Notes: generated by a model not told the origin, from the letters alone. Shown: positions 12,376 through 50,752, counted from the first letter of the stretch. The stretch is 50,752 nt of DNA from Jimgerdemannia flammicorona (GCA_003990765.1 RBNJ01000026.1:1-50752), one strand, 5' to 3'. Translations and numbers: made by a program.

Positions 12376-12379
12376 ATAT

Positions 12380-12890
12380 CATGAATCAGAGAGTTGACAA
12401 CTGCCTTCAAACTCTTGTTCTTAGCTCATTTCAATCACTGCCAGTTCCCCTACCCCAATTCCAAGAAGTCAATGGGAATACTCTCCAAAAGATCCAGATT
12501 CACCAAGAGAATCTTTTCCTGGCCAGATGGTTGCTACAGGTCCACCAACTCCAGGCCCATTATGCTATTGGAGAACAATTGCAGAACCTCTCAGTCCTGG
12601 AACAAACATACATCAGAAACACTACAGGACTATCAAGAAGAAATGCCACTGCTGCAGACAGGCTGTACACCCTTTATAAGCGAAACCCTATAGCTCTGAA
12701 ACAAGCATAATTTTCCTAGTATGATACACAAGGAATGAACCTAGCCACCTATCTGAGCATCATCTATGCTGTTGAAATCCTATTCCCAGAGGAAGAAGAA
12801 GAACCCTTGGAATGGAGCAACCATGGTACAGATGATGAAGATGATGAAACTGATATTGATGCAGAAGATGCTTATCCACACTGAGATGAT
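12380..12890 (+). pseudogene. Accessory ORF between pol and the 3' LTR of Gypsy A (unknown protein)
   Basis: MNQRVDNCLQ...HYAIGEQL...TAADRLYTLYKRNP (ORF 12318-12710), followed by an acidic tail. Not env-like (no signal or TM segment seen). Confidence 0.6.
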
Positions 12891-23416: not shown

Positions 23417-25264
23417 CTACTGCTCCATGTTCCTCACTTCCTGCACTAAGTCTAGATTATATTCCACAGTCACCGCCTCCTCCTCAGTCCTCTGAGCCTC
23501 CAATCCAGCCAACAGCTCATTCATCTCTCTATCTGCCTTCTCCTCGAACTCTTCCCAGTACTCTAGGCAGGCCTCCTGCCAGAGCTGCAAACCATGATGC
23601 TTGGTCCAGCAGTATTCAGCCCTCTCGCCAGCAACACCTGCCAATTCTGCCTCTCACTCCTCATCCACCTCATACCCTTCCTCCTCCAAATAAACAGCAA
23701 GAATTTCTGCCTTCAATACCAACACCACTCCATCCCCCTGCAGGATCCTCACCCAATACTCATCACTCATAACCCTCAAGTCCACCTCCCCCAACTCATC
23801 AGCCATCAGGTTATTCATCATCTGATACATCCAAAGTAAGTTTCCTACCTCCTTCCCTCCAGAAGTCACTGGCCTCCCTCCATCCAGCATTGTGGTGTCA
23901 GCTCTGGCACTTGCAGACTCATCCCATGCCTCAGAGACATCCACTAGTTCCTCCTCCCTGGCTGCTACCCCTTGTCTCCTGTCCACTACCTCTGGAACTC
24001 CAAATTGAACTTGCTGGGCCCCCCACATAAGCACATCCTCCTCCATCCTTCATCAGGAAGCCGGACCACATCTGATAAGTGGGGTTGGGGTAGGTGAGGC
24101 TTCCCCATCCTCCTCCCAGACCTCCAACATACCATCAGCATAGAGGTCATTGCCCACCACCTCCTTGTCCTCTCCAGTCTCCTTCTCAGTGCCCCCACCA
24201 CTCTCACCTGCCCAGACACTCACTTTAGCATCTGCTATCTCCACCATTCCACCTGCATTCTTCTGTGACCTCCTCTCCAGCTTTGCCAGCAGCTCCTTCT
24301 GTCTCTTGCACCCCTGAGCCCTTTCTCACTATCTCTTGTCTACTCAGATCTGCTTCCCATCCACTACCTCCAGGCATGTGGACTCCACAAATACCTTTCA
24401 AGCCTTTGCCCTCCACTTCACCATGCCACCCAGCTCTTCCAGCACTTCCAACAAGTCCTCTTCCTCCTCCTCACTCCCCTTCACCCTTGTCACCTTGCAC
24501 AAGATTGCCCTCCAGACTATTACTGAAGGCCAGTCTCTCACCTTTCTGGTAGCTTCCTTCTCTGCCAGCCAAATCCTCACATCAACATCTCTAGTCCAGA
24601 GTGAGGTCCCTTTCCATACTCTAAAGCTGATGTCTACCACATCACCATACTCTGTCATAACCTCTTCAACTCTCCTTCTTGTCTCCACTGCTGTTACTGT
24701 AGATACCCCTTTCACCAACAGTTGTACCACCCTGGGATTCCACCTCAGACAGTGCATCATCAGAACACACACCTCCCCAACTGTCAATCCCACCTTCAGT
24801 GCCTCCTCCAACAGCTCAGCCTCCTCAAATCCCACCTCTACTCCCTCCAAACCCTTCAGAAACTTTATGGATACTGCTCCAGCCATCTGTTTAGTGATGA
24901 GACCCAGTACCATTTTTGCCATCACTACTAGGCCCCAGAAGCATAGAGTAACTACAAATGCCAAGATCAACTTCTTGAGTAATGGAGCCACTGCCAGGCC
25001 CATCACACCATCAGCCAAATCCTCTGATCTTCCAAGCCCCTGCCACTCAGTCCCACCATTGGTAGTTACATCTGGATTTTTTTCCAGATTGGCAGTCCCA
25101 TCTCCATCAGCTGTCATGCTCCCCCCAGCCACTATACCCCCAGCTCCACTGCCCCCACCACCAAGGGCTACTCCTCCCTGTACTGCTGTCTTCCCCACCT
25201 CCTTGCCTCTCCTCAGCCATCCCTCCAGCCCAGACACCTACTGTCTCCCCTTTACCATTTCCAT
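23417..25264 (-). pseudogene. LINE ORF1 (gag-like, fragmented)
   Basis: Long purine-rich ORF pieces (24398-25237, 23654-24046, 23417-23644) directly upstream of ORF2 and inside the TSD-bounded element. Confidence 0.65.
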
Positions 25265-27401
25265 GAAGCTCACCCTTCCAGACCCTGGTTCTCTACCACT
25301 GCCTCCTCCTCTACCACATCCTCCTGCCAGCAGTTCCCTCATACCTCCCCCCAGCCCAGGGCCTTGCCCCACCTGCTGCCAGTCAAACTTGCTTGGGCCA
25401 CCCTATCTAGTATGTACCTCAGATTGCTGGTCAGTCACTATGTTGCTAGTTACTTTCTCCAATAAACAGTGTTGTAAATGCTTTCCAAAGATTGTATAAC
25501 CTGAATGATACTGGAAAGAGCCATGCTGTATAACTGTTATTCTTCTGGCATTCTGATCTTGTATAACTCAAAATTCTTCTGGTATTCTTTTTCTATATCA
25601 TCAAAATTCTACTGGCATTCTAAACTTATACAATTACTTATACAGACAACTATAGTTTTCTATGTTCCAGTATTTTATTTGGTTATTGGAATTTATATTT
25701 AGCTTTATAACTTAGCAACCATTAAATTATTTTGTATAAATACCCCTCTTATTTCCTTTGAAATAAAGTTAGTTCTAGTTTACTTACTCTCAATTCCATG
25801 CAAGCAATCTAAAAGATAATAAGATAGTTTAAAGATAAGAAGTTTGAGGACTATAAGATCTTGGAAAGGTACTCCAATAAGAACTTGCTTATAACAAACT
25901 TGAGGTTAGTCTAAGAGATATATCTTGGAGAGAATCTGATATATTTGAAGAACTCAGCAACCACTATGTGACAACTTAGTATCTATTGGCTGGTGATTTA
26001 AGATGAATCCCTCACTTTCAAGCTAAAAAACAAACAACCACCACAATAACTACTCTGACTACAAGAGTCACCCCTGCAAGAATTCAAGACAAGATGGAAA
26101 TGTGTCTCTCTACATTCTATAGATAAGAGTCAATCCTGATCTTTATTAAAGACTTTGAACAATTTGCTACTATATGAGCCCTTGGCATAGATGCACAATT
26201 GGCCCTTCTATCTGTTAGTCTCAGAGGATCTACCAGAGACAAGTTCAATATAGCCATCATTGCTGATACTAGTGTAGCCAAACTGGTCAACATAAAGACC
26301 TTTCTCAGAACTACATACTATATTGAAGAGATCAAGCAAGCTCTCAAAGATTAACTCAATACTATCTGCCAGGGACTCAGTAAAGATTCCAACTCATTCT
26401 ACACTTGAATCTGCTACCAGATTGTCTTGGCTAACTATGATGATCACCTCAAGAATCAAATAGCTGATTCAACCTTTCTTAAAAGAGTTCATCCTGAAAT
26501 TGTCCTAGCAATCTGATCTATCCCAGCTGCTCTGATCCTTGATCAGAAAGTGATCTTTTTATAGAGATATTGGACTGCCAGACACCCTGCTGAATACTTA
26601 ATAAAGAAAATAACTAGCATCAAGAGAGAGCCATCAAAGTCAACCAGTATCATATCTGCCACAGTTGTAAACAGACAACTATTCCCACCTATTCCTGAGG
26701 TAGCCAAAGCTGACCTAGTAGAGGAACTCACCAAGCAGTTTACTGAGATAACTATATACCTTAGTGATATTGTTAGAGAAGTCTGAAGTACCAATAGGAG
26801 ACCAGTACAGAGATTTGCAGTTGTTACAGAAGAATGCAATATCACATACTTCAGATGTAGAGAAGAAGACCACTATACAAAGAGTTGTATGACTGAAATA
26901 AGATACAAAGTCCAACCAAGCAATGCTACCAGAACTAGAGAACAAACCAATACAGTAGTCATTGAGGAGATTAGTGACACTGATGATGAAGAATACTAAA
27001 AAGAGTCTGAATTCTACTCTGTTACTGAAGATGCCAGAACCTGGTCCAGCCCTATGATATGAAGAGCAACTGCAAGCCAGTTGGAAGACCAAAGAAGACT
27101 CTAGCTGTCATTATTCAAAGCAAGACCCAATCTGAGGAGATTGATCAATATATGGAGCTAGATGAAGCTGCTCACCAAATTATTGAAGATACTACTTCAG
27201 TCTCAGGAGAAAGTAAAAGCAAGAAAGAACAGAAGCTATGTAAGACTAAGATCTTATAAGGATCTCAAGGAATAGAAGGTCAATACTACTTTTGGACAAC
27301 TAGCTAAAGTCCCTGCCTTTAGACAGTAGTTGAGAGTAGGACTTACAACTACTACTAAGAATCAAGAGTATAAGATTGTAGAAGCTCACAATGCACAAAA
27401 A

Positions 27402-27456: not shown

Positions 27457-28214
27457 AGTACAAGATATCAACCTATACTCCATATTAGATTGAAGATTAT
27501 ATCTTTGATACTATCATTGATATTGGTGCTGGAGGATATCTCATGAGCAAGAAGACAATTGACTGCCTAGGCTAGGATATTGAAGAGTCTACCAAGATGA
27601 TCTATATTACAACAGATGATATATGAACTACCCCCCTAGACAAGATCCAAGAAGTTCTCATCAAGATTAAAGAAGCTACTATCCAGTAGATATGATTGTT
27701 ACAAGTACTACTAACTATGATATTCTCACTGGCAACCAATGGCTTCATAAGATCAAGACTGTTATTGATCTTAATGTCTAGAAGATATAGATCAACTATA
27801 GAGGAAGAAAGGTATGAGTCTCTATCAATATCCATAAAGAAGTACTACTAGACATGGAGAAAGGAGATGAGGAAGACACAGAAGTCTTCATGCACTTGGT
27901 ATATAAGAACAAAAGCAAGACACCCAAGCTCACAGATGAGCAGTAGTATAACAAGATCATCAATAACTATGCCCCTCAAGGAAGATACCCCCATGGTACT
28001 AAGATGTACTGCTCCAAACACCTGAATGACTACTAGTCCTATATTAGTGAAGTCAGGAAAATCCACCAATAAAAGTATAAGCAAGAAGCTGCTGAAGCAA
28101 AGAAGAAAGCCAAAGAAGATGATCAGCCCCCAGAGCTTCAAGCTGATAGTAATTATAAGGAGAAATAAGAACCAGACATCACTCTCAAGATCAAGAAGTT
28201 TTACTCTGAAGCCA

Positions 28215-28605
28215 AGATTCTAGAATACAAGACTGAAGAAGCCATAGGAATGGACCTTGCTAGTATTCAAGATACTACTCTTGAACCACAGACCACCACT
28301 CTACTTAGCACTAGAATTGGAGTCAAGTTATCAGAGAACTATACCAGAATTATCAAGACCAGAAGCAGTCTGGCCAAAAGTAAAATCTTAGTTGAAGGAG
28401 GAGTAATTGACTCTGATTACACTGGTGAGATCTTTGTCATAGTTAGGAATCACAACCCCACCACCCCATTCAAAGTCAAGAAGCATGATAGGATTGGTCA
28501 GATGCTGATCTACAAAATCAAGAAGCCTAAGATCACTGAAGCCATTAAACTCATCAAGATCAAGAGAGGAGAACAAGGCTTTAGATCTACTGGAAGAAGA
28601 GCCTA
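28215..28605 (+). pseudogene. dut: dUTPase domain in Gypsy B pol
   Basis: AIGMDL, TRSSLA, GGVIDSDYTGEI, RIGQ and RGEQGFRSTG motifs in ORF 28250-28855. Confidence 0.92.
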
Positions 28606-31600
28606 TACTGCTACCAAGATTACTGAACTTGAGCATAAGAAAGATAAGAACCAGAACAAGTACACATATACCATTGGAGAAAACTTTCCCCTAGAAGAAC
28701 AACTTCTCAAGATCCTGTACCAGAATGAAGAAGTACTTATCACAGACTTCAGAGACATCCACAATCAAGAACCCAAGTACTACTATAAAGTTGACACTAG
28801 TAATACCAAGCCCATCTACCAGAAAGCCAGACCTATACCATCTGCCTATAGATAATGGCTGTAAGCAGAACTCAAGGAAATGAAAGAAGCTAGAATCATC
28901 AAGCAAGCTATCAGCTCCTGGACTTCACTCAATATCCTCACCTCAAAGAAAGGAAGCAAGTCTAGAAAGTTTGCCCCAAGACTCTGTATTAATTACAGGA
29001 AGCTCAATACAATCACCAAGAAGGATAGGCAGCTCTTGCCAAATATTCAAGAAATTCTTACCACCCTTAGAAGCAAAGCCAAATACTATACTACCTTGGA
29101 TCTGTTCTCAAGCTTTCACCAGATTGGTCTCACTCAAGATGCCAGTGAGAAATCAGCCTTCATCACATCTGATGCCACCTATGTCTACTTGTGAATACTA
29201 TTTGAAATGTGCAATGCACCAGCAGGTTTTCAGTGAATTATGAGAATTATGAACAGAGTTTTCAGCAATGAGATTGGAAAATGGCTCTTTGTCTGTGATC
29301 ATCTTCAGTAATATATAGAAACATATCAACTATATACAGCTAGCTCTCAAGAAGCTCAAGGAATATAGCCTCTACAACAAACTCAAGAAATGTAAGTTTA
29401 CAGCTCAGGAAATCGCCTACCTAGGACACCTCATCAACCAGACTGGAATTCATATGGACCTCATAAAGATTGAGGCTGTTGTAGTCTACCCAAGACCCAG
29501 AACAACTACAGAAGTCTATGCCTTCCTTGAACTGGCCTCCTACTACAGAAAATTCATTAAAGGATACTCCAACATCACAGCACCTATCTACAAGCTACTG
29601 AAGAAAGAAACCAAATTCAAATAGATCAAGGAATGTCAAGAAACCTTCAATAAACTCAAGATCAGATTGACCCAAGTACTTATCCTCAGAAGACCAAGAG
29701 TTCATCCTGCAGACAGATACAAGTACTATAGGACTTAGAGCAGTCCTAGCTCAGAAGAAAGATAGACATAAATATGTCATCTTCTATGCAAGTTGAGATA
29801 TCTATAGAGCAGAACAGAACTACAAGTCATGCAAGCTCAAATGCTTAGTAGTAGTTTAGGCAGTAGACAATTTCCACTACTACCTAGCTGAGAAATACTT
29901 CACTATTCAAACAGACCATTCTGCCCTCACCTGGCTATTCTACACTCTGAACCCTAAAGGAATATATACCAGATAGATCTACAGGCTGTAAGAGTATAAC
30001 TATACTGTCAAGTACTGCTCAGGAAGAACCAATGCCAATATTGATACACTCTCAAGGATACTCCAAAATACCTCCATTAAGACTATTCAACATGAATAAG
30101 GAGTTACACTATAGATTAATCAGCTACCTCAGGCAGCAGAAGATGTCCAACCACCTCGAACTCTGGACTATCACTATTATTAACCAGACTTGGAAATAAT
30201 TTGAACTAGACAACACTATATTCAGAAAAGGAGAAAAGCTCATAATACTCAAATATAAGAAGTATCAAGTAATGAAGGAAGTATATGAACAAGAACACCT
30301 AGGAGGAACCAACATATATAATAAAGCAAGAAGAACTATATAGTGGCCCAAGATAGAAGAAGACCTGTGCCAATTTGTCAAAGGGTATGATAAGTGCTAA
30401 AAATAGAAATAAGATCAATAAGACCAGGTATCTGGGTCATCAAGAATTGAGCCTATCCCCTTCCACCACATTATAATAGATATTATTGGACTGCTACCAG
30501 TGACATTATCAGGAAACCACTATATTATAGTTATTATAGACCTCTTTACCAAATAGATAGAAGCAGGAGTACTACAAGAAGCCAATGCTCTCTCTATAGC
30601 TAACTTCCTGTACTGAGAAATCATCTGCCTCTATAAGACACTAAGGCAAATCACTACAGACTATAGCACAGAATTTGTCAATAGATTTCATGAGATAATG
30701 TATCAGAAATACAAGATTCAGCACATCAAGACCACCACATACCACCCTCAAGGAAATAGACAGATAGAGAGAACCAATAAGACCCTCAAGAACATTTTGG
30801 TGAAGATCTCAGATACATATGACAATTGGGATAACTATCTTCCAACCACCCTCTCTGTTCTATAAGATATATGATCACAGAGTACACACTTTACTCCAAG
30901 AGAACTGCTTTTTGGAGAAAAAGATTCTGATGGAACCTCAGCCACAAATCTAGATCTAACATGGAGACAGGTTGACTCAGAAATCCAGAGACTACACCAA
31001 ATCAAAAAGAAGGCTGAAGATTATATCTTCAAGTCACAAGTACTGATAAGGAAGAATGCAGAGAAGAATCACAAGACTCTAGAACCCATTCAAATCAGAG
31101 AAAAGGTTCTACTGTATCAAAATATAGTAGAAGCCTCATAGTTATGAAAACTGGAGCCTAAATGGAAAGGACTCTTCTATATGTAAGATATTAAGAAAAC
31201 TACCTTCTGGCTTAAAAAACTCTCAGGGACTATACTGTCTACTAAGGTACACAGGAACAGACTCAAGAAGTACTATGAACTTATATAAGAGAAGCAAAAT
31301 ATGATGACCACCCATGAGGTTCTAGTCTGTGAATCATAACAGCATATTTCATAACCAGTAGGCAATCTGTCTGGACTATTCTCTAAGGGATATGGTATCA
31401 GTAACTACTCATCTGTGAGACTTTTAAAGCCAGAGGAGTTCAAACCATCAACTGATTGGTCAAGATCAGAATCAGGCCCTTGCTCTATATGAAGGAAGCA
31501 ACTCTTTACCATTATGTCAAAATATATAAAGAAGATACTAGCCCATAAATACCACTTTTTGACCCCCTGTTAGAGGTTATGAGATCAGCAAATTTTTCAG

Positions 31601-38606: not shown

Positions 38607-38984
38607 CTTCCGTCCAGTCAACCTTTTATTTTGTTAAATGAGCCATTACGTGGCCCGCCTGCATCCTGTTGTATAGTTAAAACTTGTATTCATATAGCTT
38701 GTGCAGATAATATGATAAATGCAGCTTAGTTTGAGTTTCGTTTTAGTTGGCTCGAAGTACGCCTTTTCAATCTCTTCCGGTATTTTGTGTGGGCGTTTCC
38801 TTGAAGGTGTGATCTGTGTATGTCGGTGAAGACTGAAATCAGCAACTTACGCCAAAGAGATACAGGCGCTCAAGAGATTTGCCCTGAAAGAGACCCACTG
38901 CGTTCTGCAATTTCCGTTTATTTCAAGCTGTGCCACAGTTTAACGTATCTGTGAATCAACTCAAATCAAACACTAAACATAGTC

Positions 38985-39470
38985 GTGCAATCCAACAGTG
39001 GTCTTAACCTCAAGGATGATATCGGCTCCATATGGACAGATTCAGCCTACCACGACGTAACTATCGCCTGCGCTGATGGCGTCGAGCTTGGAGCTTGCCG
39101 TGCCATGCTGGCTGCAAGGCGTGTTCACAATTTTTATAGATCTATCTCATTAATTCATCTCATATGGTCCCAAAGATGCCCCGTCTTAAGGCAATGCTGT
39201 ACGGAAACATGCAAGAGAGCCTCCCAACAAGCCGTCCTCCACCATACCAACTCTGCAGCGCTCACTGTCGTCCTCGGCTTCATTTACACCGAGTCGATCG
39301 ATGAAACCACCATCACCATAGCGGTGGATATCTATCGTTTCCTTCTCCTCCCAAGGCTCACGGAAATGGTACTGGATAGCGCACCCAAGACATTTCCGAC
39401 TTTGGCGTCTCCTCGTCTCTCCTCAACGAGGCCGCCGCTGGAAGGTAGCAAGGACCTCTACCAGTCCACG
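38985..39470 (+). pseudogene. BTB/POZ-domain gene, probably pseudogenised and 3'-truncated
   Basis: LKDDIGSIWTDSAYHDVTIACADGVELGACRAMLAAR, a probable intron at ~39119-39175, then CPV-KAMLYGNMQES (needs a frameshift) and NSAALTVVLGFIYTE: a typical BTB pattern. No clear ATG. Similarity ends at ~39470. Confidence 0.72.
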
Positions 39471-39661
39471 TTCTCTCGTCCAGTACACATTTCAAACAAA
39501 AACAAAGTCTCGTTGATAACATCGAGATGTCTCGACGAGACCGGGATAGAATGAGACGAGAGAAGTCCTGTCTCGTCCCGTTTCGTACGGAGCACCACAT
39601 CAGTCCAAAGGTTGTGAGCTCTGGATAATGCTATATTCGTCACTCACTATGTTGATGCATG

Positions 39662-39682: not shown

Positions 39683-40464
39683 AAAGAGGTGTCTTTACCC
39701 AATCATTCTGCCGTGACGCAAAAAAATATATACATCAAGAAACAAATCAATGAAAAGAACCCTATTCTTTACTGATATCTCGATTTCATAACCCTTATTG
39801 TCAAAAGCGTGAGCCAAAGATTCGTTTTACTCAAAAAAAAAATAAGGACTAAACTTACAAATATAAATCGCATGCTCAACGAAGCCTAAAGAGAAGAGAG
39901 AAATAAGGATTTGACGGAAAATTACTGAAATTATGAATTGCAAAGGATACCGTTTTCTATATTCGCGCACCAGCTGGTCAATGGCATGAGCCACCCATCT
40001 ATTAATTACATGCCTAATGGCTTCGACATTTTCTTAAAAAACAAAAAAAAAAAAAAAAAAAAAAACAGTCCTTTTCAAGAGTTGAACCCTAGCGGGAATA
40101 ATCTATATCAATATCAACAACCAAACACCGTTTTGCTACTTCACACTACATCCCGAAAGGTCCCGCCGTGACATTCCACGAGGCGTGGCTCTACCAAGAA
40201 GTAGACTGCCGGGGAGATTTCGGTGTCTCCTGGTCAGTACTTGCTGGCTGGGCTTAATTCGCCTGAAGCATGGTATACAAGGCTGAACGCCCCAGCCTAG
40301 GATGGCGCCCTCAGGTTATTTAATACACTATCGCTCAATATGCATTGGACCTCTTTCAATTAAGTAGGGGGGGGGTTTTTTTAATTCGTCATTCCCTTCC
40401 TGCCTCTTAGTTGATGACTTTTCGCGAGTCTTTTGGGCCTTCGACTGATTTATTTGAGCTTTTA

Positions 40465-40510: not shown

Positions 40511-41290
40511 TCGAAGTACTGCAAGATCGCGGACTACTTCGACTTTCTGTATACGGCGGTGCCCCACAAGCTTCGTTATATTCACGAGGTGGGGAATTCC
40601 TTTCAGTCATGGCGTTCGAGTTCGAATGGCGATGCAATATTCAGAAAAATAAATATCTGAGAAAGTTAGGACACACGGACAAACCGATACTTGAACCGGT
40701 GCACGCGCTACCCGAAAATAATGGCGATGCATCGTTCAAATAAAACAAAGATCAGAAGAATGTGGGGCCATACGCTCATACAAGCGACAACTATTTCTAA
40801 CGGGAAATAAGTCTAAACAGGGCACTATAAGTAGCGTTCCCTGTGGTGAATAATGGTCATTCGATGTGGTGCTCCGAACAGGACGAAGTTTTGCGCATAT
40901 CATTCGACGCGCTCTTTTTTGACATTGGTCACCATTCAACCTTTCCGTGATTGTCCGTAAGCAGGAATTTGTGGACGTTACACTTTCACCTCAACTCACG
41001 TGTGAGCATCAACCTTCCCATATACAAACTGTTTATACTCCTTCCATTCAGAGGTACAATTCCAACAAAACCGAAAACATACCGGCCCATTCTATATCTG
41101 CATCCAGTCAATGTGAGTGTAGCATCAAAATTCGTACTTTTACTTGCAATTTTCACCACGTTGATGCCTTGTTAATACCAACAATCAGTACATACTTTTA
41201 AGATGGCTCTCATTGCCCATACTATTATATACAAGATATAAATTTATATAATTTTTATTTAACTCTGACAATAATGTGACCTGGGTAGCA

Positions 41291-44200
41291 TCATTCTCGA
41301 TGCTTTCCTTTATTCCTAAATTTTCTGAATATCCTCCTAATTGGAATACGGAAAATTTTCAGAAACCTGCGCTTTGATGGGGTTTGAGTAGAGGAGTGGG
41401 CCTGCTCATCTGAAGGGGTTATAGAATGATAGTTGAATTCGGAATGGGATGGTAGATTGGACGTGGTAAGATCTTGTTCCACACCAACGACGTTGATAGG
41501 CTCCGCCATGATTTCACCAACCATAGCAGGGTTTATAGGGAGGTTGGCGGGTTCAGAATGGAACGGCGGATTGGATGTGGTGAGATCTGGATCTAAATCG
41601 ACGACTGCGTTAGACTCAGTTTTGATTTCATCAACCATAGCAGGAGTTTTCTCAGGATATTCCGCAATATTCTTGCCATTTTCGTCTTTGGAGATTCTTT
41701 TAATCAACTCATCCTCTGTGTGATACTTGCTGATGGAGCCAGCAACGAACGTAAACCTAGAAATGCCGGAGGGAATCTCCTTTTGTATTTTCTCTAGATA
41801 TGCCACGGCTTCAGGGACGTCGTCTAGCCATTTTTCGCCAGCGATTTCTGTCTCCATAGCTTCAAGATCTTCCAACACCTCATCGATAGTCGGTCGCATT
41901 TCGGGGTTAAGATTCCAGCACCTCTTGTAGATGTCCGAATATTCGATCGGAGTGCCGGGGATGGGTTCCTCACGTAATCCAGGTGAGATCGCATCGGGCG
42001 GACGCATTGCATTTCCACGAGGGCAGAATCTTGCGGTAAGCTGCCACAAAAGTGTTCCGAGGCAATATATATCGGATTTCTTCGTGCATGGTGAGCGTGT
42101 AAATGCTTCAGGTGGAAGGTATTCAATGCGGCCATAGGATTGGCCGCCGTATTTTCTGAAGTGTTGTACCGTGTTGCTAATGCCGACGTCAATAATCATG
42201 GGGTTGTCGTTCGCTGTACCGAATAATACAATGTTTCCTGGGTGCAAGTCATTATGGATCAAATCAGCTGTATGAACCACTTGCAGCCTGCAGGTGATTT
42301 CTAGCGCAAGCCGCCATACGTTTGACCATGATTTTGGCGGAGACTTAGTGAGTAGATTTGCAAGGTCACCACCGGCAGCATATTCCATCACCAAAATATA
42401 ACCGCCATTATCATTCTTTGATAATCCAATAACTGTTGGTGTTGCTACTCTACGAGAATTGCTGCAGAGTTGAAGATAGACATTGAGTAATATCTGTATA
42501 AGAATTAGAAAAATGGAATCCAACCCAAGTTAGTAATGGAAAACAATATATCCTTAATTTCCACAGATACAAAAGAGTATATTGTAAACTGGAATCACCT
42601 CATTCCGGAGTTTATCTATTACATGATCATTTCCTTTCAGCTCCTTCAACGCAACAAATTTTTCTCCTTTCCGATTATCATTCACTTGAGCTTTGTATAC
42701 GATGCCAAATCCACCTTCGCCTAACTTTTCAATCTGTGTAAACTCACAATAAGGAATCCAAGTCATGCAAGGTGCGAGTTCGGCGATTTGAAGCATTGTT
42801 AGGTACTCCAGGAGTTTCTCATCATCACTGGAGAAGCCAGTCTTGAATTTTGACATAACTTTGATGTCAGAATTTTTGATTACTTCAATAATTTGAACAA
42901 GATGCAATTTGCTTGAGGCTGTTTCATGAAATCCAGCCAGCATTCGAAGGTCATGAGTCGAGTATTTTGTCCAAGTGGTAAACGACAGTTCGTACAGTTT
43001 TTACATACCATTGAGATTGTATTTCGACTTTGCCAAATACGCGTTCCGTTCCTGAAACGTATTAATAACACGCAATGTTTCGTCCCCAATGCGATTGTCT
43101 GATGAACAGTGGAAACACGCATGGGGTGAGCTGATATCCATTATGTAGCTGCAAACAGCAGTTCATACATACCTTGTAGATTCAGCGTGGTCACGGTCAT
43201 GTTCTGCTTCAGCGACTCGGCCAGTGCGCGTGCTCCCTCGTCGCCGATTCCGTTGTCTGAATATGAACAAAGGATGAATAAGCACACAACACACAGATGG
43301 TGAGCTGGTACCCATCACGCAGCTCAAAATACCTCGGAGATTCAGCGTAGTCACGGTGGTGTTCTGCTTCAGAGACTCGGCCAGTGAACGTGCTCCCTCG
43401 TCACCGATTCCGTTGTCTGAAGGTGAAGAGAGCAAGTACGCATGATTGGTGAGCTGGTATCCAACATGCAGTTGCAAACAGCAGTTCACAAAGTTCAAAC
43501 ATACAATCGAGATTCAGCGTGGTCACGGTCGTGTTCTGCTTCAGAGACGCGGCCAGTGCGCGTGATCCCTCCTTGCCGATTCCGTTGCCTGAAGATGAGC
43601 AGATGATAGATTACCAAACAATCTCCAGTGGTGAGCTAGTACACATCATATAGCTGCAAAAAAAAGTTCAGAGTTCAAACATACGTTGGAGATTCAGCGT
43701 GGTCATGGTCATGTTCTGCTTTAGAGACTCGGCCAGTGCGCGTGATCCCTCCTTACCGATTTCGTTCTCTGAAGATGGACAGAGGATGAATCAGCCAACA
43801 CGTATGGGTGGTGAGCTACCCATCACGTAGCTGCAAACAGCAGTTCACACGATCCAAACATACTTTCAAGATTCAACGTGGTCACAGACGTATTCTGCTT
43901 CAGAGACGCAGCCAGTGCGCGTGCTCCCTCGAGGCCGATTCTGTTGTCTGACGATGAACAGAGAATGCATGAGCAAATGGAGTAAGTATATACCCATCAC
44001 GCAGCTCGAAGTCTTGTTCCGCTTGAAAGCCTTGTCTATGTCAATTATCATCTCGACGCCTTTAAACTCATTCCTTGAAAAATGCATAAATACGCACATC
44101 GGATCACCTACATTCAAAAAGTCACCGACATACCTTCGACGTTCAGCTGCGTAAGTGCCGTGTTTTGTTTCAGAGACTCAGCCAGAACACGGGCACCCTC

Positions 44201-47200
44201 ATCGCCGATGCTATTCACTAAAAAATGCACAAATACACATAGGTCAGCTAGATCGAATCACCCGCATTTAAATAGTCACACACTGATTTCCGACATACTT
44301 TCGAGATTCAGCTGGGTAAGCGTCATGTTCTGCTTCAGAGACTCGGCCAGAGCATGAGCACCCTCAGCGCCGACTTTATTATCTAAATGAACATACACGG
44401 GTTAGCTGGATCAAATCACCCACATTCAAACAGCCACACACTGACTTCCGGCATACCTCCGAGATTCAGCTGGGTAAGGGTCGTGTTCTGCTTCAGAAAC
44501 TCCGCCAGAGCACGAGCACCATCAGCGCCGATAGAGTTCCCTGAAAAATACACAAATACGCACAAGTCAGCTGGATTGAATCACTCATATTCAAACATTG
44601 ATTTCTGACTGACTGTAGAGATCCAGCTGAGTAAGGGTCGTGTTCTGCTTCAGTGAAGCGGCCAGTGCGCGTGCTCCCTCGAGGCCGATTCTGTTGTCTG
44701 ACGGCGAACAGAGGATGGGTGAGCAAACACACACAGGTGGTGAGCAGGTCCATCACGCAGCTTAAACATACCATAGAGATTCAGCGTGGTCACGGTCGTG
44801 TTTTTCTCCAGAGACTCGGCCAATGCTTGTGCTCCCTCGTGGCCGATTCGGTTGTCTGAAGGTAAGCAGAACATGGATAAGCAAACACGCATGGCCGATG
44901 AGCTGGTACCCATCACGTAGCTGCAAACAGCAGTTCACACAGTTCAAACATACGTTGGAGATACAGCGTGGTGTCGGTCGTGTTCTGCTTCAGAGACTCG
45001 GCCAGTACGCGTGCTCCCTCGTCGCCTATTTCGTTATCTGAAAATGAAGAGAGAATGGATGAGCAAACACGCGCGACCCATCCCATAACTGCAGACAACG
45101 GTTTTCGTAATTTCGACATACCCCTGATATTTGGTTTAGTCAAAGTCTTGTTCCTCTTCAAAGCTTTATCTACTATCTCGCCGCCTTTAAACACATCCCC
45201 TGAAAAATGCACAAATACGCATAAGTCAGCTGAATCGAATCACCCACATTCAAACAGTCACCAGACATACTTTTGAAATTCAGCTGGGTAAGGGTCATGT
45301 TCTGCTTCAGAGACTCGGCTAGAACACGGGCACCCTCATCGCCGATTTGGTTTTCTAAATGAGTACGCACAGATCAGCTGGATCGAATCACCCACATTCA
45401 AACAGTCACATACTGTTTCCGACATACCTTCGAGATTCAGCTGGCTAAGGGTCGTGTTCTGCTTCAGAGACTCGGCCAGAACACGGGCACCCTCAGTGCC
45501 GATTTTGTTACCTAAACGAATACGCGCAGGTCAATTGGATTGAATCACCCTAAACAGCGCACACTGATTTCCGACATACCGTAGAGATTCAGCTGGGTAA
45601 GGGTCGTGTTCTGCTTCAGAAACTCCGCCAGAGCACGAGCACCCTTAGCGCCGATTTTGTTCCCTGAAATTCACAAATACGCACAGATCAGATCAACCAA
45701 ATCACCCACATTCAAACAGCCTAACACTAATTTCCGACATACTTTTGAGATTTAGCTGGGTAAGCGTCGTGTTCTGCTTCAGAGACTCGGCCAGGGCACG
45801 GACACCCTCATCACCGATGATATTCCCTGAAAAATATACAAATAGCACAGATCAGCTGTATCGAATCACCCACATTCAAAGTCACACATTGATTTTCGAC
45901 ATACCGTAGAGATCCAGCTGGATAAGGGTTGTGTTCTGCTTCAGAGACTCGGCCAGAGCACAGGCACCCTCAGCGCTGATTTCGTTATCTAAATTAATAC
46001 GTACAGGTTAACTGGATCGAATCACCCACATTGATACAGTTGCACACAAATTTCCGACATACCTCCGAGATTCAGCCGGGCAAGAGTCGTGTTCTGCTTC
46101 AGAGACTCGGCCAGAGCACGAGCACCCTCAGCGCCGATGCTATTCACTGAAAAATGCACAAATATGCACTAGTCAGCTGGATGGAATCACCCACATTCAA
46201 ACAGTTACACACTGATTTCCGACATACCGTAGAGATCCAACTGGGTAAGGGTTGTGTTCTGCTTCAGAGACTCAGCCAGAGCACGGGCACCCTCAGCACC
46301 GATACTATTCACTGAAAATGCACAAATATGCACTAGTCAGCTGGATCGAATCACACACATTCAAACAGTTAAACACTGATTTCCGATATACTGTAGAGAT
46401 CCAGCTGGATAAGGGTTGTGTTCTGCTTCAGAGACTCGGCCAGAGCACGGGCACCCTCAGCGCCGAATTCGTTTTCTAAATAAATACGCACAGGTTAGCT
46501 GGATCGGGTCACACATATTCAAACAGTTGCACACTAATTTCCGACATACTTCCGAGATTCAGCTGATTAAGGGTCGTGTTCTGCTTCAGAGACTCGGCCA
46601 GAGCACGGGCATCCTTAGCGCGGATGCCATTTCCTGAAAAATGCACAAATACGTATAGGTCAGCTGGATCGAGTCACCCACATTCAAATAGTCACACATT
46701 GAATTCCGACATACTGGAGAGATTCAGCTGGGTAAGGGTCGTATTCTGCTTTAGAGACTCGGCCAGAGCACAGGCACCCTCAGCGTCGATTTTATTATCT
46801 AAATGAATACACACGGGTCAGCTGGATCGAATCACCCTCATGAAAACAGAACAAACCGATTTCGGACATAATTACATTCGAGATTCAGCTGGGTAACGGT
46901 CGCGTTCAGCTCCAGAGCCTCGGCCAGAGCACGGGTACCCTCATTGCCAATTATGTTACCTATAATGAATATGCACACTTCAGCTGGATATATTCAAATA
47001 GTCCCACACTGATTTACGACATACATACCTCCGAGATTCAGCTGGGTAAGTGTCGTGTTCTGTTTCAGAGATTCGGCTAGAGCACGACCACCCTCAGAGC
47101 CAATGCTATTTCCTGAAAATTCACAAATACGCACAGATCAGTTGGATCAAAGCACCAACAACCAAATAGTCACACACTGATTTCCGACATACTGGAGAGA

Positions 47201-48206
47201 TTCAGCTGAGTAAGGGTTGCGTTCTGCTTCAGAGACTCGGCCAGAGCACGGGCACCCTCAGCGCGAATGTTATTCTCTAAAAAATGCACAAATACGCATA
47301 GGTCAGCTGGATCGAATTTACCCACATTCAAACAGCACACATCAATTTCCGACATACTTTCGAGGTTCAGCTGGGTAAGCGTCGTGTTCTGCTTCAGAGA
47401 CTCGGCCAGAGCACGAGTACCCTCGTCGCTGATGTCATTCCCTGAAAAATTCACAATACCCAAAGGTCAGCTGAATCAAATCATTGACATTCAAACAGCA
47501 CACATTGATTTACGACATACATTCGAGATTCAGCTGGGTAAGCGTCGTGTTCTGCTTCAGAGACTCTGCCAGAGCACGGGCACCCTCATTGCCAATTCCG
47601 TTATCTATAATGAATATGCACATGTCAGCTGGATGGAATCACCCACATTCAAACACTAATTTCAGACATACGGTAGAGATTCAACTGGGTAAGGGTCGTG
47701 TTCTGCTCCAGAGACTCGGCCAGAGCACCAGCACCGTCATCGCCAATGAAATTCCCTAAAAAAATTATAAATACGCACAAGTCAGCTGGACGGAATCACC
47801 CAAATAGTTATACACTGATCCCGATATACATATGAGATTCAGCTGGGTAAGGGTCGTGTTCTGCTTCAGAGACTCGGCCAGAGCACGGGCACACCTATCG
47901 CCGTAAAAATTTCCTGATAAAATGAACAAATACGCACAGATCAGCCAGATTGAATCATTCACATTCAAACAGTCACACACATACTTTTGAGATTCAGGTG
48001 TAAAAGGGTCGTGTTCTGCTTCAGAGACTCGGTCAACGCGAGTACACCGTTATTGTCAATACCCTCTCCTTAAGATAAACGGATGGATAAGTAAATAGGC
48101 ATAGATCGCCAGTTGAAACTCGTCAGACAGCTGCAATCAACAGTTCACTCAGTTCAAACATACCGGAGAGATCCAGCGTAGTCTGGGTCGTGAGAAGTGT
48201 TCGCAT
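41291..48206 (-). CDS. Cytosolic LRR (RNI/NLRC3-like) - tyrosine-kinase-like protein kinase, ~1389 aa, 34 coding exons
   Basis: Exon 1 is 48206-48164 (MRTLLTTQTTLDLS). Then 29 exons of exactly 84 nt, with upper bounds 48068, 47913, 47755, 47604, 47441, 47276, 47112, 46959, 46798, 46633, 46475, 46311, 46146, 45988, 45826, 45663, 45511, 45354, 45037, 44855, 44697, 44540, 44382, 44217, 43947, 43768, 43588, 43416, 43256. Cap-like exons at 45199-45122 and 43098-43009; kinase exons at 42918-42599 and 42493-41291. All introns are GT-AG and the spliced frame is open. Kinase motifs: GEGGFG, VALK, HNDLHPGN, DVG, YLPPE, SDIY.LG, RP. Confidence 0.88.
43173..48068 (-). repeat. Tandem exon-intron array (~155-180-bp units), one 28-aa LRR per unit
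   Basis: Consensus xNxIGxEGARALAESLKQNTTLTQLNLx. Introns are mutually homologous and fall into two families. Confidence 0.95.
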
Positions 48207-48701
48207 GTTTATGTCAGTGTCAAGTGCAAAGTGTCAATAAAGGTGTTTATTCCTAACCCTAATCACAATAAAGGTGGCTTGTCGTCGTCTGATAATCTTT
48301 GCCAAAAGCTTCCTCCTCTGCGCCAACCTACCTTTTGGCTCAAAATGCCCAGAAACATCAGCTTTTTTCTGTATGCTCGTCCGTAAGCGACCGGCATCCA
48401 CGGAGTCCTTACGACAATAAATATTGTGGGGTAGAACTGGTTTCCGAAATCACAGGTGATCGGTGAAGCTCAAGCATAGAACTGACAAATATGTTTCGCA
48501 ACGAAATTAACTGCGGCGGCAGAGTGGCGAATATGAAAATTAACTGCGCCCACAGAGTGACCCAATCTCTCCACTACACCCGAATAAGTGCATGCTTTCT
48601 ATACAAACGAATAATTTCGGTAAGTATGACACGTATCATGTTGTTTATAAAACCAGCACTTTATTTTGAATTATTTAAAAGAGATGCCATTTAATTGTTG
48701 T

Positions 48702-48721
48702 TATATATATATATATATATA
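48702..48721. repeat. (TA)n microsatellite
   Basis: Directly visible. Confidence 0.9.
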
Positions 48722-48985
48722 ATTTATTTTGAGTAGTCGTTTACAAGAATATATATTATGGGCGATGGATGATGAATTGAACTAATGACGGCTGAAGGCG
48801 GACTACATGAAGGCAGGTTCATGAGATTGTTTTGTAGGACATATATACAATAGCGATTTTTGACAAAATGGGTCTATTTTCTATTATACAGTTCGCCACC
48901 TTGATGACTTCTGATAACGTCACGCGACAATAGCTAAGCCCTCTCACCCATTCAAGACTTTGCGTTACATGCACCTGCGGAACAT

Positions 48986-49800
48986 GCGAAACTCTCCTAC
49001 CTCCTGAGTAAAGGCCACAGCAACGAGCAAATTCGTGCCTTCATAACCAAGAGCCTTCATGGTGAGCTCACTGTCCTTCCCCGCAACGGTTCACCTTCTA
49101 CAACCATGATCCAGAGCAATCATCGCCGCAGCCTTCTTCAACCTAAGACGACTCCGGCATGTCGGAGATCGTGGACATGACCACGTCGCTCCAGGAGCGC
49201 GAAGGCGCTATACCTGCTCTGCTCTACAGCGGGCACAAACGACTCTCCTTCTGTACGAAAATTTAGGCGACGCTCTGAACCTCAACTGTATCGACTACAA
49301 TGGCGCACTCCGCCCCACCTTGTCTCTTCGGAGAGCCACACGGCGGTGATGGAGTTCGACGCCATACGCGAGGGTCACGGCGAGGTCAAGCTGCTGAGAG
49401 AAGCCGGCGCACATTTTGCCAAGGGGGAGACCGAGGACACTGGGTGGAGCTGGTTACGCGCTGTTAACAATGGGGATATGCGCAGTTGATGATTGAGGCC
49501 GGTTGGGGTGTGAATTGGAAAGGCGGGCGACGAGCGGAGGGCTGCGCATGTGGCCGTGGCGGAGGAGGGTCGGTGTGCTGGAGGTGTTGCTGCGGCCCGA
49601 TGGGATAGATTTGGATGTGAGGAATAGGAGGGGAAGGAGGGCGCAGAATGAGTTGGAAGGGATGTTGGTGGCATTGGAGAGAGGCAGGAAGAAGGCGGAA
49701 GAGAGGGCCAAGGTGGGTGGTGGTGAGGGAGTGAAGGTGCCACCTAAGGAGATGGTAGAGATGTGTAGGAGCGATGGAGGTATTCGGCGTAATTTATTTT
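48986..49800 (+). pseudogene. Fragment of an L-asparaginase/ankyrin-repeat (ASPG-type) gene, frameshifted
   Basis: AKLSYLLSKGHSNEQIRAFITKSLHGELTV (asparaginase C-terminus), then ankyrin remnants LNCIDYNG..P.HL..SE.H, DAIREGHGEVKLLREAGAHF and AAHVAVAEERVGVLEVLL. N-terminal catalytic part is absent; multiple frameshifts. Confidence 0.75.
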
Positions 49801-50752
49801 GTGATAATGCGCTCATAAATCTTGTAAGCTATATCTTCCAACCTCACGGGAAAGAAGGGGGGGTGGTGGTATCTCATTCGAGCCTTCCTCTCACACTGTG
49901 GCAAATTTTTCTTTGTTACACCTCTGCCTCCGTCACCATGTCCGAACCCAAACTTCCAACCCGGAGCATGCCGAAATCAAAACCTGGGATGAACACAACC
50001 TTTAAACACTTTCGACACCCTGCTCTCGGATTGAAACCCAACCATATGTAGCCATCTTGCGTGATCAGGAGCCACTCGCATTATACTCGCCGACAATGTC
50101 CTCAGACCATCCGCTAGCTCCGCCTTAACACATGCGTGGTAACAGATACAGCCAGTGGGTTTAGTCAGACCACGTGGTGCGCTTAGCGGTGCGTATATAC
50201 CTGTCTAGTGATGCTTGAGGGGCCCATATCATATTGGTACGCTATTCGGGTTCTATTTGGCATTTTCTTGCACACCAGTTGAGATCGTGTACGTTGCTGG
50301 ACATTTTTATTTTATATAACAATCGTGAGAATGTAGTACCAGGGACATCTACGTCGTCACGGGGGGGAAACCTTCTCGGAGGTCAAGGGTTTCGTAGTTT
50401 CACTGTTTGGTGATTTACCAAAATACACCTGCAGCCTGCAGTGTCACCGGCTGTAATTACAATATTCACGTCCTCATATAATATAAATTGTTGGGGTATC
50501 TCGAGTGTAAATAGTTCAGCCAATAAAAACATACATAATAATATGCTTAACATTCGACCTCCTCTATTTTCGAAATAGAACAAAATATTCTGATTACACA
50601 TTTGTCGTCAGATAATCGTCGTTCTGCCAATTAGCAAACGAGCCAAAATCAGACTCACGACCCTAACGAACTCTACTCAATAAATCTATAATACATATAA
50701 CAAATAAATAAAAATGTTCATTCACCTCCCCCTCCTTCCTATTCCATCCAAA

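Follow-up and report, generated by a model that had tools for sequence, protein, structure and literature searches.

In the window, the whole stretch of 50,752 nucleotides of Jimgerdemannia flammicorona DNA that was analysed, the minus strand from 48206 to 41291 carries a real and intron-rich gene, probably an expressed one, in which a long array of LRR exons is joined directly to a kinase. As put forward in the original prediction, 29 symmetric exons of 84 nt encode one RI-type LRR each and are in frame with the kinase; this is now supported by an open model of 34 exons and by Pfam matches. The array expanded as units of exon plus intron were duplicated, both in tandem and as segments; its scaffold is under purifying selection and four codons per repeat are near saturation. 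We lean, by a modest degree, towards a gene whose LRR solenoid senses a ligand and controls the attached kinase, with surveillance as the likeliest context.

Gene model and transcripts

The spliced model has 4170 nt, that is 1389 codons plus stop, and contains no internal stop codon (Table 1). All 33 introns are GT..AG, and they are 67-105 nt long with the sole exception of a 186-nt intron that harbors a relic cassette. A search of the minus strand (41200..48300) for open 84-nt stretches preceded by AG and followed by GT returned 37 rows, comprising the 29 LRR exons with a common offset, four second frames of those exons and four chance rows. TRF reported arrays with periods of 158-180 nt and 76-78% matches. 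The cassette array is not a chance pattern.

Several features go beyond the original prediction: the 78-nt and 90-nt cassettes, the 80-nt relic, the half LRR in exon 1 and the order of the units, in which two intron/exon classes follow each other as A-block, spacer and B-block, the whole twice. The 78-nt exon has AG and GTATGT splice sites, and models stay open with or without it. None of the open models includes the relic, and the frame is broken if it is spliced in; therefore, it was placed inside the 186-nt intron and must be skipped. Upstream of exon 1 there is an in-frame stop nine codons before the ATG, and no AG is present between that stop and the ATG. A low-depth X2 contig extends past the start of exon 1, to 48214.

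Table 1 Features of the LRR-kinase gene, in coordinates of the window.
Feature	Position	Strand	Remarks
LRR-kinase coding region	41291..48206	-	ATG at 48206, stop at 41293-41291; 34 exons, 1389 aa plus stop
Exon 1, 43 nt, MRTLLTTQTTLDLS	48164..48206	-	ATG within apparent second half of an LRR cassette
29 cassette exons, 84 nt each, phase 1-1	43173..48068	-	introns between them 67-98 nt
Starts of 84-nt exons 1-15	48068, 47913, 47755, 47604, 47441, 47276, 47112, 46959, 46798, 46633, 46475, 46311, 46146, 45988, 45826	-	
Starts of 84-nt exons 16-29	45663, 45511, 45354, 45037, 44855, 44697, 44540, 44382, 44217, 43947, 43768, 43588, 43416, 43256	-	
Divergent cassette exon, 78 nt, DVFKGGEIVDKALKRNKTLTKPNIR, phase 1-1	45122..45199	-	spacer, A-type block to B-type block
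Relic of spacer cassette, 80 nt, fused to intron sequence	43994..44073	-	inside the 186-nt intron
Terminal LRR-like exon, 90 nt, NRIGDETLRVINTFQERNAYLAKSKYNLN, phase 1-1	43009..43098	-	array's C-terminal cap
Intron between the last two 84-nt exons, 76 nt	43257..43332	-	spliced out in public contigs X1 and X2
Kinase exon 1	42599..42918	-	61-residue juxtakinase linker, then GEGGFG G-loop, VALK, alpha-C Glu (LRNE)
Intron within the kinase domain, 105 nt, GT..AG	42494..42598	-	X1 contig piece ends at 42493
Kinase exon 2	41291..42493	-	HNDLHPGN, DVG, YLPPE, C-terminal extension, tail, stop

Evidence for splicing comes from X1 and X2, which are public assembled contigs, not reads, from two runs of two studies, and whose labelling as RNA is itself a guess. 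The joint 43256->43333 is present in X1 (depth 199) and in X2 (depth 12.4) and reads CT..AC on the plus strand, GT..AG on the gene strand. Contig pieces end exactly at the predicted exon edges 42493, 42599 and 42918 while the contigs run on for 121-125 letters: an X2 piece covers exactly 42599-42918, an X1 piece ends at 42918, and where an X1 piece stops at 42493 its contig continues for 121 letters. Contigs of both sets start at 41265, 26 nt beyond the stop. In the kinase part, X2 deviates from the window by five coding differences, three of which are synonymous. A joint 43009->42918, which would connect the terminal LRR exon with the kinase, was absent among the 15 joints listed of 62; support for the link between LRRs and kinase thus comes from the reading frame, the splice sites and the ends of the contig pieces. 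Four low-depth contigs retain introns (44511-44642, 46756-46961, 47697-47862 and 48064-48214), so unspliced RNA or DNA is present too.

The LRR cores are covered by 706 (X1) and 359 (X2) contigs at a likeness of at least 95%. Long joints that might indicate exon skipping (for example 44366->47520 in both runs, and 43548->47850) were rejected as such: they lack GT..AG ends, and their sides, 20-46 letters long, are often separated by extra letters, as in chimeras of paralogues or repeats in de Bruijn contigs. They probably derive from paralogues or repeats. Contig cover was low at the bin with the relic exon (43788-44119) and at 48436-48767; neither was counted as evidence.

The predicted protein and its relatives

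The product, about 1389 residues long, is predicted to be soluble and cytosolic, with a lineage-specific kinase of the Ser/Thr type and a disordered basic tail; some 31 tandem RI-type LRRs make up residues 1-883. That it has no signal peptide, TM helix or NACHT/NB-ARC domain had been proposed before and is borne out. In the whole predicted protein the highest Kyte-Doolittle mean over 19 residues is 1.04 and the N terminus is hydrophilic; since no window of 19 residues exceeds this value, neither a TM helix nor a signal peptide is seen. The coding sequence is made up of a 14-residue N terminus, the LRR cassettes, the 61-residue linker, the kinase and the tail only, leaving no NACHT or NB-ARC domain. 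Roc-COR is absent as well, the last LRR being separated from the G-loop by 61 residues, where Pfam finds the kinase alone, and the predicted protein is devoid of immune hallmarks such as NOD, TIR or a death fold. One plus-strand ORF upstream of the gene was scanned against Pfam and had no match. The surroundings of the gene are rich in retroelement remains.

Each of the 29 units of 84 nt corresponds to 28 codons, the split codon counted, which agrees with the 28-29 residues of RI-type LRRs. Pfam LRR_6 (PF13516) matched a read-through piece spanning two repeats (E = 7.2e-08; 32.4 bits, cut-off 23.4), and a second piece of the array remained under the cut-off with 20.3 bits. The closest solved chains are an RI-like protein (2.8e-11), LRRC34, DRC5, 5irm, NLRP and RNH1, with RanGAP also among them; 5irm, an LRR-bearing chain titled 'Uncharacterized protein', is presumably NOD2. 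By length, profile and nearest structures, the cassettes are of the RI-type LRR class. Because all of them are symmetric (phase 1-1), gain, loss, swap or skip of a cassette keeps the frame, which had been claimed before and follows from arithmetic.

The kinase was recognized as PK_Tyr_Ser-Thr by Pfam (E = 2e-22), and exon 2 of the kinase alone is over the cut-off for both PF07714 (80.2 bits) and PF00069 (70.9 bits). The catalytic K, E, D, N and D are all in place, in the motifs GEGGFG, VALK, LRNE, HND-LHPGN, DVG and PPE. The 'intact catalytic motifs' of the original prediction are thus correct for the catalytic residues but not for the motifs, which read HND, DVG and PPE instead of HRD, DFG and APE: the Arg of HRD is changed to Asn and the Phe of DFG to Val, and the Lys of the catalytic loop to His. 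With HND in place of HRD, the kinase is non-RD. For the TKL kinase of the original prediction, group signals are mixed. PF07714 scores above PF00069, and the closest solved chains are NEK2, TAK1, RIPK1, MLKs and ALK, of which TAK1, RIPK1 and the MLKs belong to the TKL group and ALK to TK, whereas NEK2 is outside TKL. The 3' part of kinase exon 2 encodes a family-specific C-terminal extension followed by a low-complexity tail of 193 residues with a basic end.

The closest relatives of the kinase are Endogone kinases with 50-58% identity (39% for P0186). The subfamily includes P0001, P0036 and P0186 from Endogone, which are named 'kinase-like domain-containing proteins', and P0035, P0037, P0038, P0184 and P0185 from Logan. 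In an alignment with nine homologues, these kinases have in common the juxtakinase linker, Hx[D/N]LHPGN, IID[V/I]G, YLPPE and the C-terminal extension; in contrast to the gene described here, none of them has LRRs. The catalytic Asp is lost in the homologues P0001, which has Asn at this position, and P0067. In P0001 the kinase is preceded by a caspase-like Peptidase_C14 domain, and partners among the 44 nearest kinase representatives are MLKL_N (2), Sel1 (4), Ras/Roc (1), TLDc (1), Ank (1) and C2 (1). Judged from these domain combinations the kinase family is modular, and the broader family has greatly expanded in Mucoromycota, where it has many architectures.

LRR_6 was found in none of the 44 representatives and in none of 25 longer homologues, and a kinase-anchored scan of metagenome contigs yielded 591 pattern matches of which none was confirmed. 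Among the sequences compared, the predicted LRR-kinase fusion is known from this gene alone. The LRR cassette is also found beside a MYND finger in the Jimgerdemannia protein P0028, and one-LRR-per-exon arrays of this cassette are present at four metagenome loci (L001-L004). Within about 2 kb beside these arrays no kinase or other Pfam domain was detected; the only match is a piece of a retroelement gag at L003. A protein cluster look-up gave no names for seven proteins.

Growth and divergence of the array

That the array expanded by duplication of exons together with their introns is evident from both. The 84-nt exons are 79-94% identical to their best partners and the introns 72-94% in 28 of the 31 units, the exceptions being the introns after the 78-nt exon (0.68) and the 90-nt exon (0.63) and the relic intron (0.45). 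Similarity matrices of exons and introns correlate with r = 0.73 (Mantel analysis). Since each cassette has 84 nt and phase 1-1, every change in copy number kept the frame. The best partners of the upstream and the downstream intron agree in one of 25 units, and the exon partner is that of an intron in nine of 25, with small differences in identity. Cassettes on the opposite strand were not found (three weak plus-strand matches among 347 HSPs), and the one relic cassette in an intron is in sense orientation.

Purifying selection on the LRR scaffold is seen in a pN of 0.12 versus a pS of 0.34 (pN/pS 0.35). Variation is concentrated at four sites where the beta-strand ends and in the loop behind it: the two final x residues of LxxLxLxx, the x that follows the Asn and a single residue of the loop. 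In 14 disjoint pairs of nearest units, the four variable codons (12 nt) differ at 97 of 168 sites (58%), the introns of the same pairs at 152 of 1016 (15%) and the scaffold third positions at 71 of 336. The variable codons have thus diverged nearly four times as much as the adjoining introns and about 2.7 times as much as scaffold third positions. At those x positions of LxxLxLxxNx that count as exposed a priori, dN and dS amount to 0.55 and 0.45, compared to 0.12 and 0.33 for the remaining positions.

The original prediction had proposed a diversified binding surface; between units, the high divergence of four codons agrees with it, but against their own dS the exposed sites reach a dN/dS of only about 1.2, and a column-wise control weakens the signal. 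In 21 A-type units the mean diversity per column is 0.205 in exons and introns alike, and the diversity is 0.50 in those 12 intron columns that vary most versus 0.575 for the 12 nucleotides of the variable codons; the seven B-type units have no excess diversity at these codons in this control. A Fisher test that set the variable codons against the introns (p ~2e-30) is not taken at face value because the four codons were picked after inspection of the data and columns of similar variability exist in the introns. The four variable residues are situated at the C-terminal rim of the beta-sheet face, the region of ligand contact in RI-type LRRs. The divergence of the rim codons would fit a diversified binding surface, a signal made weaker by the column-wise control.

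Related designs and possible functions

Vertebrate NLR/ribonuclease-inhibitor genes resemble the fungal gene in having RI-type LRRs on repeated symmetric exons and cytosolic products, and RNH1, NLRP and 5irm are among its closest sequences. Their exons encode two LRRs each (~171 nt), and the proteins have NACHT but no kinase. Plant non-RD LRR receptor kinases of the EFR/XA21 class also have a long LRR sensor, a non-RD kinase and hypervariable exposed positions. They are equipped with a signal peptide, extracellular 24-residue plant-type LRRs, a TM helix and an RLK/Pelle kinase; signal peptide, TM helix and plant-type repeats are all missing in the fungal LRR-kinase. ROCO/LRRK kinases have cytosolic LRRs and a kinase in one chain, but LRRK has Roc-COR in between. 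P0031 of Andalucia godoyi combines RI-type LRRs with a kinase, with 37% identity over the LRR piece, but there the kinase is N-terminal of the LRRs.

By analogy, the design recalls the brown-algal LRR-ROCO proteins, which have been proposed as candidate immune receptors (PMC3341825, PMC11378527). Their 'type I LRR exons' likewise encode one LRR per exon at constant length with the frame kept; the LRR face has some four positions that are hypervariable or selected, and there is no TM helix. Inactivated cassettes within introns of the algal genes may have a counterpart in the single sense-strand relic of the fungal gene. Repeat-per-exon shuffling in brown-algal LRR-ROCO genes had been rightly cited in the original prediction. 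The Ectocarpus ROCO exons, however, have 72 nt (24 aa, plant-specific-type LRR) and not 84 nt (28 aa, RI-type), the effector is Roc-COR instead of a kinase, and the organism is a stramenopile and not a fungus (PMC3341825). Cassettes on the non-coding strand are present at Ectocarpus loci and absent at the fungal gene, and the LRR-kinase genes of Ectocarpus showed no shuffled or inactivated LRR exons (PMC3341825).

In fungi the design is rare. Surveys report nearly no LRR receptors or LRR-kinases (PMC10197012, PMC2939053). The fungal LRR-plus-kinase proteins of Soanes and Talbot (2010) are encoded by four chytrid genes and by five intronless ascomycete genes resembling bacterial LRR-kinases; like the present protein they have LRRs, a kinase and no TM helix, but the Jimgerdemannia gene has 33 introns and a Mucoromycota-specific kinase (PMC2939053). 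A topical search of the literature found no Mucoromycota gene of such design, and it may be so far unpublished.

How could the protein work? The long LRR solenoid would bind a protein or another ligand along the variable C-terminal rim. This binding would control the attached kinase, either because autoinhibition is relieved or because molecules cluster, and the kinase would then signal; most likely, non-self or symbionts and endobacteria would be what is under surveillance. The start codon in a half-cassette, the single relic exon and the retroelement-rich neighbourhood count against this explanation.

A plainer reading, which we consider distinctly less probable yet the strongest competitor, takes the protein for an ordinary LRR-kinase that has a regulatory or scaffolding task and an endogenous partner, much like other cytosolic proteins with RI-type LRRs, and whose variable sites reflect relaxed constraint on surface residues after duplication. 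Many housekeeping proteins contain RI-type LRRs, the closest chains include the axonemal LRRC34 and DRC5 as well as RanGAP, and the kinase family has expanded into many architectures; a dN/dS of about 1 at exposed sites is what neutrality predicts, and intron columns may vary as much as the 'hypervariable' nucleotides. Drift should not exceed the neutral rate, however, as the four codons do relative to introns and scaffold third positions. Moreover, 31 recently duplicated repeats are unusual for a fixed endogenous interaction, and the family is narrow and fast evolving, with best homologues at no more than 50-58% identity.

More doubtful still is the reading of the original prediction, a diversifying intracellular immune receptor whose repertoire arises by ongoing exon shuffling among cassettes or paralogues and/or by alternative splicing into many isoforms. 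All 31 cassettes are symmetric, so that skips and swaps are frame-neutral, the rim codons are hypervariable, an intronic relic is also known from Ectocarpus ROCO loci (PMC3341825), and the analogous brown-algal LRR cassette genes have alternative splicing and four selected sites (PMC11378527). The numerous contigs on the LRR cores hint at many cassette-bearing transcripts, but the long-range joints with their short sides and extra letters look like chimeras. Likewise, the mismatched best partners could reflect recombination among units but may be noise, the differences in identity being small. The lack of an opposite-strand cassette, the equivocal column-wise control of selection and a protein devoid of immune hallmarks argue against this reading as well.

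Finally, a young, decaying or non-functional gene, a side effect of repeats expanding in a region rich in transposons that is transcribed but has no selected function, would account for the start codon in a truncated cassette, the frame-breaking relic, the nearby retroelement fragments and the lack of an annotated orthologue of this architecture among the 44 nearest representatives and 25 longer homologues, but is very improbable given GT..AG at all 33 introns, 4170 nt open over 34 exons, a scaffold pN/pS of 0.35, spliced contigs in two runs of two studies and catalytic residues that are intact, unlike those of P0001 and P0067.

We therefore keep to a ligand-sensing LRR solenoid that would control its kinase as the preferred reading. 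Non-RD kinases have been tied to innate immune signalling (PMC8463890). It is a bold and rather unlikely extension that fungi of the Endogonales type possess a family of NOD-less cytosolic LRR-kinase receptors whose binding surface is diversified one cassette at a time, as units are duplicated, exchanged unequally and perhaps skipped, with a lineage-specific non-RD kinase that is elsewhere wired to caspase-like or MLKL-like death modules; this would amount to an independent LRR-based recognition of non-self or symbionts.

Innate immunity of fungi is thought to be based on NLRs with WD40, TPR or ankyrin sensors, and most fungal NLRs have WD40 or TPR sensors (PMC10197012), as the original prediction had also stated. 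Here, a plant-associated and early-diverging fungus of the Mucoromycota has a long, recently expanded RI-type array, its rim residues near saturation, fused directly to a kinase. Should the protein be only a scaffold kinase, the gene would still be a clean example of the growth of a solenoid through symmetric exons. As a sensor, it would extend LRR-based recognition to fungi, a kingdom reported to be without LRR immune receptors, and repeat-per-exon diversification would have arisen in a third independent case, the other two being brown algae and vertebrate NLRs. With one kinase and one array, the gene would then offer a tractable entry to the sensing of partners, endobacteria and competitors by Mucoromycota.

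Anatomy of the LRR-kinase gene

When the minus strand over 41200-48300 was scanned for open-frame stretches of the form AG-(84 nt)-GT, 37 rows were obtained: 29 LRR exons at the same offset, four second frames of those exons and four chance matches. Assembly of the LRR-kinase model, one exon at a time, yielded a spliced coding sequence of 4170 nt, that is 1389 codons plus stop, with no internal stops. Every cassette (an exon encoding one LRR) is entered and left in phase 1 and is, therefore, neutral to the frame. All introns (33/33) are GT..AG and 67-105 nt long, with the single exception of one of 186 nt; the latter harbors a frame-breaking cassette relic, present in none of the open models examined. 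TRF describes the LRR array as periods of 158-180 nt with 76-78% matches, and no further cassette or kinase copies were found elsewhere in the 50,752-nt window. The scan and the open 1389-codon model confirm the original prediction of 29 exons of exactly 84 nt, all phase 1-1 and in frame with the kinase; its interpretation of this arrangement as a diversifying receptor is partly supported.

Features of the LRR-kinase gene and retroelement sets in the window
Feature	Position	Size	Strand	Basis or content
Exon 1	48206-48164	43 nt	minus	spliced model
LRR cassette exons		29 x exactly 84 nt	minus	AG/GT open-frame scan and model
Spacer cassette exon	45199-45122	78 nt	minus	spliced model
Relic cassette	44073-43994	80 nt	minus	inside 186-nt intron
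Terminal LRR-like exon	43098-43009	90 nt	minus	spliced model
Kinase exon 1	42918-42599		minus	spliced model
Kinase exon 2	42493-41291		minus	spliced model
Retroelement set 1	8827-12710		plus	dUTPase 9244-9708; reverse transcriptase 10423-10824; integrase core 11438-11908
Retroelement set 2	28169-29243		plus	dUTPase 28169-28855; reverse transcriptase 28865-29194

Pfam assigned a kinase N-lobe to kinase exon 1 and PK_Tyr_Ser-Thr (E 2e-22) as well as Pkinase to kinase exon 2. The kinase motifs read GEGGFG, VALK, LRNE, HNDLHPGN, DVG and YLPPE. The catalytic residues are thus in place, but the enzyme is non-RD and its versions of the DFG and APE motifs are unusual. The catalytic motifs had been taken as intact; the catalytic residues are indeed kept, but the HRD-, DFG- and APE-type motifs are altered to HND, DVG and PPE. 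The nearest solved chains are NEK2, TAK1, ALK, RIPK1 and MLKs, and membership in the TKL group is plausible, not settled. The LRRs follow the consensus x-N-x-I-G-x-E-G-A-R-A-L-A-E-S-L-K-Q-N-T-T-L-T-Q-L-N-L-x, and a read-through piece spanning two cassettes matches Pfam LRR_6 (E 7.2e-08). Their nearest solved chains are of the RI class: an RI-like protein, LRRC34, DRC5, 5irm (which we take to be NOD2), NLRPs and RNH1.

The mean hydropathy over 19 residues never exceeds 1.04 across the protein and the N terminus is hydrophilic; therefore, a soluble, intracellular protein is predicted. The stretch ahead of the first full LRR has only 14 residues, and that between the last LRR and the G-loop only 61, which leaves no space for NACHT or Roc-COR. 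These values agree with the earlier claim that signal peptide, TM helix and NACHT domain are lacking. The protein is not an NLR, a plant-type LRR-RLK or a ROCO protein.

Spliced transcripts of the 3' part

Two small public runs, X1 and X2, each from a different study, contain 39% and 29% of the sampled words of the gene, which is about the expectation from exons alone. Their assembled contigs were compared over 40800-50752; the status of the runs as RNA is a guess. In these runs, presumed to be RNA, spliced transcripts span the 3' part of the gene. A joint 43256->43333, with ends CT..AC, is found in both X1 and X2 and corresponds to removal of the 76-nt intron that separates the final two exons of 84 nt. 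Contig pieces stop exactly at 42493 (X1), 42599 and 42918 (X2) and 42918 (X1), with the contigs running on for 121-125 letters, and in both runs a contig starts at 41265, 26 nt beyond the stop codon. The joint, the piece ends and this start agree with the modelled splice sites and a 3' end near 41265. The joint from the last LRR exon to the kinase was absent among the joints listed, and introns are kept in four low-depth contigs. In the kinase half, X2 has five coding differences from the window, three synonymous and two nonsynonymous (linker and tail).

The LRR cores at 43124-48103 are matched by 706 (X1) and 359 (X2) contigs at a likeness of at least 95%, of which more than half fit two places. 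The high summed depth, which is no gauge of copy number, hints at many paralogous cassette transcripts, or a large family, in Jimgerdemannia flammicorona. Upstream of the gene, 48759-49994 also has contig cover in X1 and X2; here X2 shows several substitutions and indels relative to the window, including 22 letters inserted after 48974. This region, together with a 184-aa ORF at 49497-50051 (+) that has no Pfam match, may be a separate transcript.

Array evolution and variation at the rim

Identity to the best partner is 79-94% for the 84-nt exons and, in 28 of the 31 units (a cassette exon plus its intron), 72-94% for the introns; the three low values belong to the introns after the 78-nt exon (0.68) and the 90-nt exon (0.63) and to the relic intron (0.45). 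The similarity matrices of exons and introns are correlated (r = 0.73), and units have been copied as exon-plus-intron blocks. Type A units have an LTQLNL exon and an intron of ~80 nt, type B units a VTTLNL exon and a longer intron. Their order is an A-block (18), the 78-nt spacer, B (2), A-like (4), the relic spacer, B (5) and a terminal cap. The order A-spacer-B occurs twice, which suggests a segmental duplication inside the array. The best partner is seldom a neighbour, and the upstream and downstream introns of a unit share their best partner in only 1/25; this discordance may reflect exchange among units, or noise.

Amino-acid entropy is maximal at four positions: after LNL, at the split codon, after the conserved Asn and after IG. 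They correspond to the final x residues of LxxLxLxx plus the loop behind them, which in RI-type LRRs make up the ligand-contacting rim. Over all unit pairs, the scaffold bears the mark of purifying selection, with a pN of 0.12 and a pS of 0.34; for the four variable codons pN is 0.61 and pS 0.56. In 14 disjoint nearest-unit pairs, 58% of the 12 nt of the variable codons differ (97/168), compared to 15% of the introns (152/1016), 21% of scaffold third positions (71/336) and 14% of scaffold nucleotides (143/1008). With exposed positions set a priori, dN was 0.55 and dS 0.45, and the remaining positions gave 0.12 and 0.33. The rim codons are near saturation while the scaffold is conserved. Diversifying selection at the rim is suggested, not shown, because a column-wise intron control tempers the excess: diversity in the 12 intron columns that vary most is 0.50, versus 0.575 for the 12 chosen codon nucleotides. 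Mean diversity is equal in exons and introns (0.205, 21 A-type units), and the seven B-type units have no variable-codon excess over introns.

Relatives, setting and a possible role

At 50-58% identity, the kinase is closest to 'kinase-like domain-containing proteins' from Endogone sp. and to unnamed proteins of Logan assemblies, with which it shares the juxtakinase linker and a C-terminal extension; in a language-model atlas the kinase falls in Mucoromycota clusters. Among 1.84 billion representatives, HMMER matched 99 to the kinase at E <= 1e-30. LRR_6 is found in none of the best 44 of these 99; their domain partners include Sel1 (4), MLKL_N (2), Ras/Roc, TLDc, Ank and C2 (1 each), and many carry several kinase domains. 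One Endogone sp. protein of the same kinase subfamily (P0001, 719 aa) has a caspase-like Peptidase_C14 where the LRRs would be and is probably a pseudokinase, since Asn replaces the catalytic Asp (HSN).

In other proteins the cassette accompanies a MYND finger (P0028, Jimgerdemannia flammicorona) or TPRs (P0027, unnamed); in a more distant match, P0031 of Andalucia godoyi, it follows a kinase. A read-through translation (P0026) reveals a second array elsewhere with the same exon-intron rhythm, and four metagenome loci have one-LRR-per-exon arrays of the same kind, with no recognisable partner domain within ~2 kb. The fusion of LRR array and kinase is thus, so far, unique to the window.

Two nearby retroelement sets, each a dUTPase ORF followed by a reverse-transcriptase piece, with an integrase core in set 1, place the gene in transposon-rich DNA. 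A copia-type gag fragment (E 5.3e-06) adjoins the array of one metagenome locus (L003, 2-217, minus strand), and such arrays may generally be sited in transposon-rich DNA. Also in the window are a BTB/POZ ORF (E 1.5e-06) at 38955-39554 (+), separated by ~1.7 kb from the gene's 3' end, a 30-A run (40036-40065, 93% purity) ~1.2 kb downstream of that end, and a 393-aa frame at 24318-25499 (+), which had no Pfam match and shares its DNA with a 279-aa frame on the opposite strand at 24398-25237 (-).

The nearest known design is the brown-algal LRR-ROCO family. As stated earlier, the repeat-per-exon design is described there: excerpts of PMC3341825 and PMC11378527 report exons of 72 nt that each encode one LRR, relics within introns, four sites under selection and alternative splicing. 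LRR class, exon length and effector all differ from those found here. Ectocarpus LRR-kinase genes are described, in the excerpt of PMC3341825, as having no shuffled or inactivated LRR exons. Fungal LRR+kinase proteins are very few according to the excerpt of PMC2939053, with four in a chytrid and five ascomycete genes that are intronless and bacteria-like.

From sequence we infer that the LRR solenoid would bind a ligand along its rim and, when ligand-bound, would control the attached kinase. The setting may be one in which non-self or partners are recognised, because the kinase is non-RD, because caspase-like and MLKL_N modules are joined to its relatives and because the relatives of Jimgerdemannia flammicorona live with plants and endobacteria.
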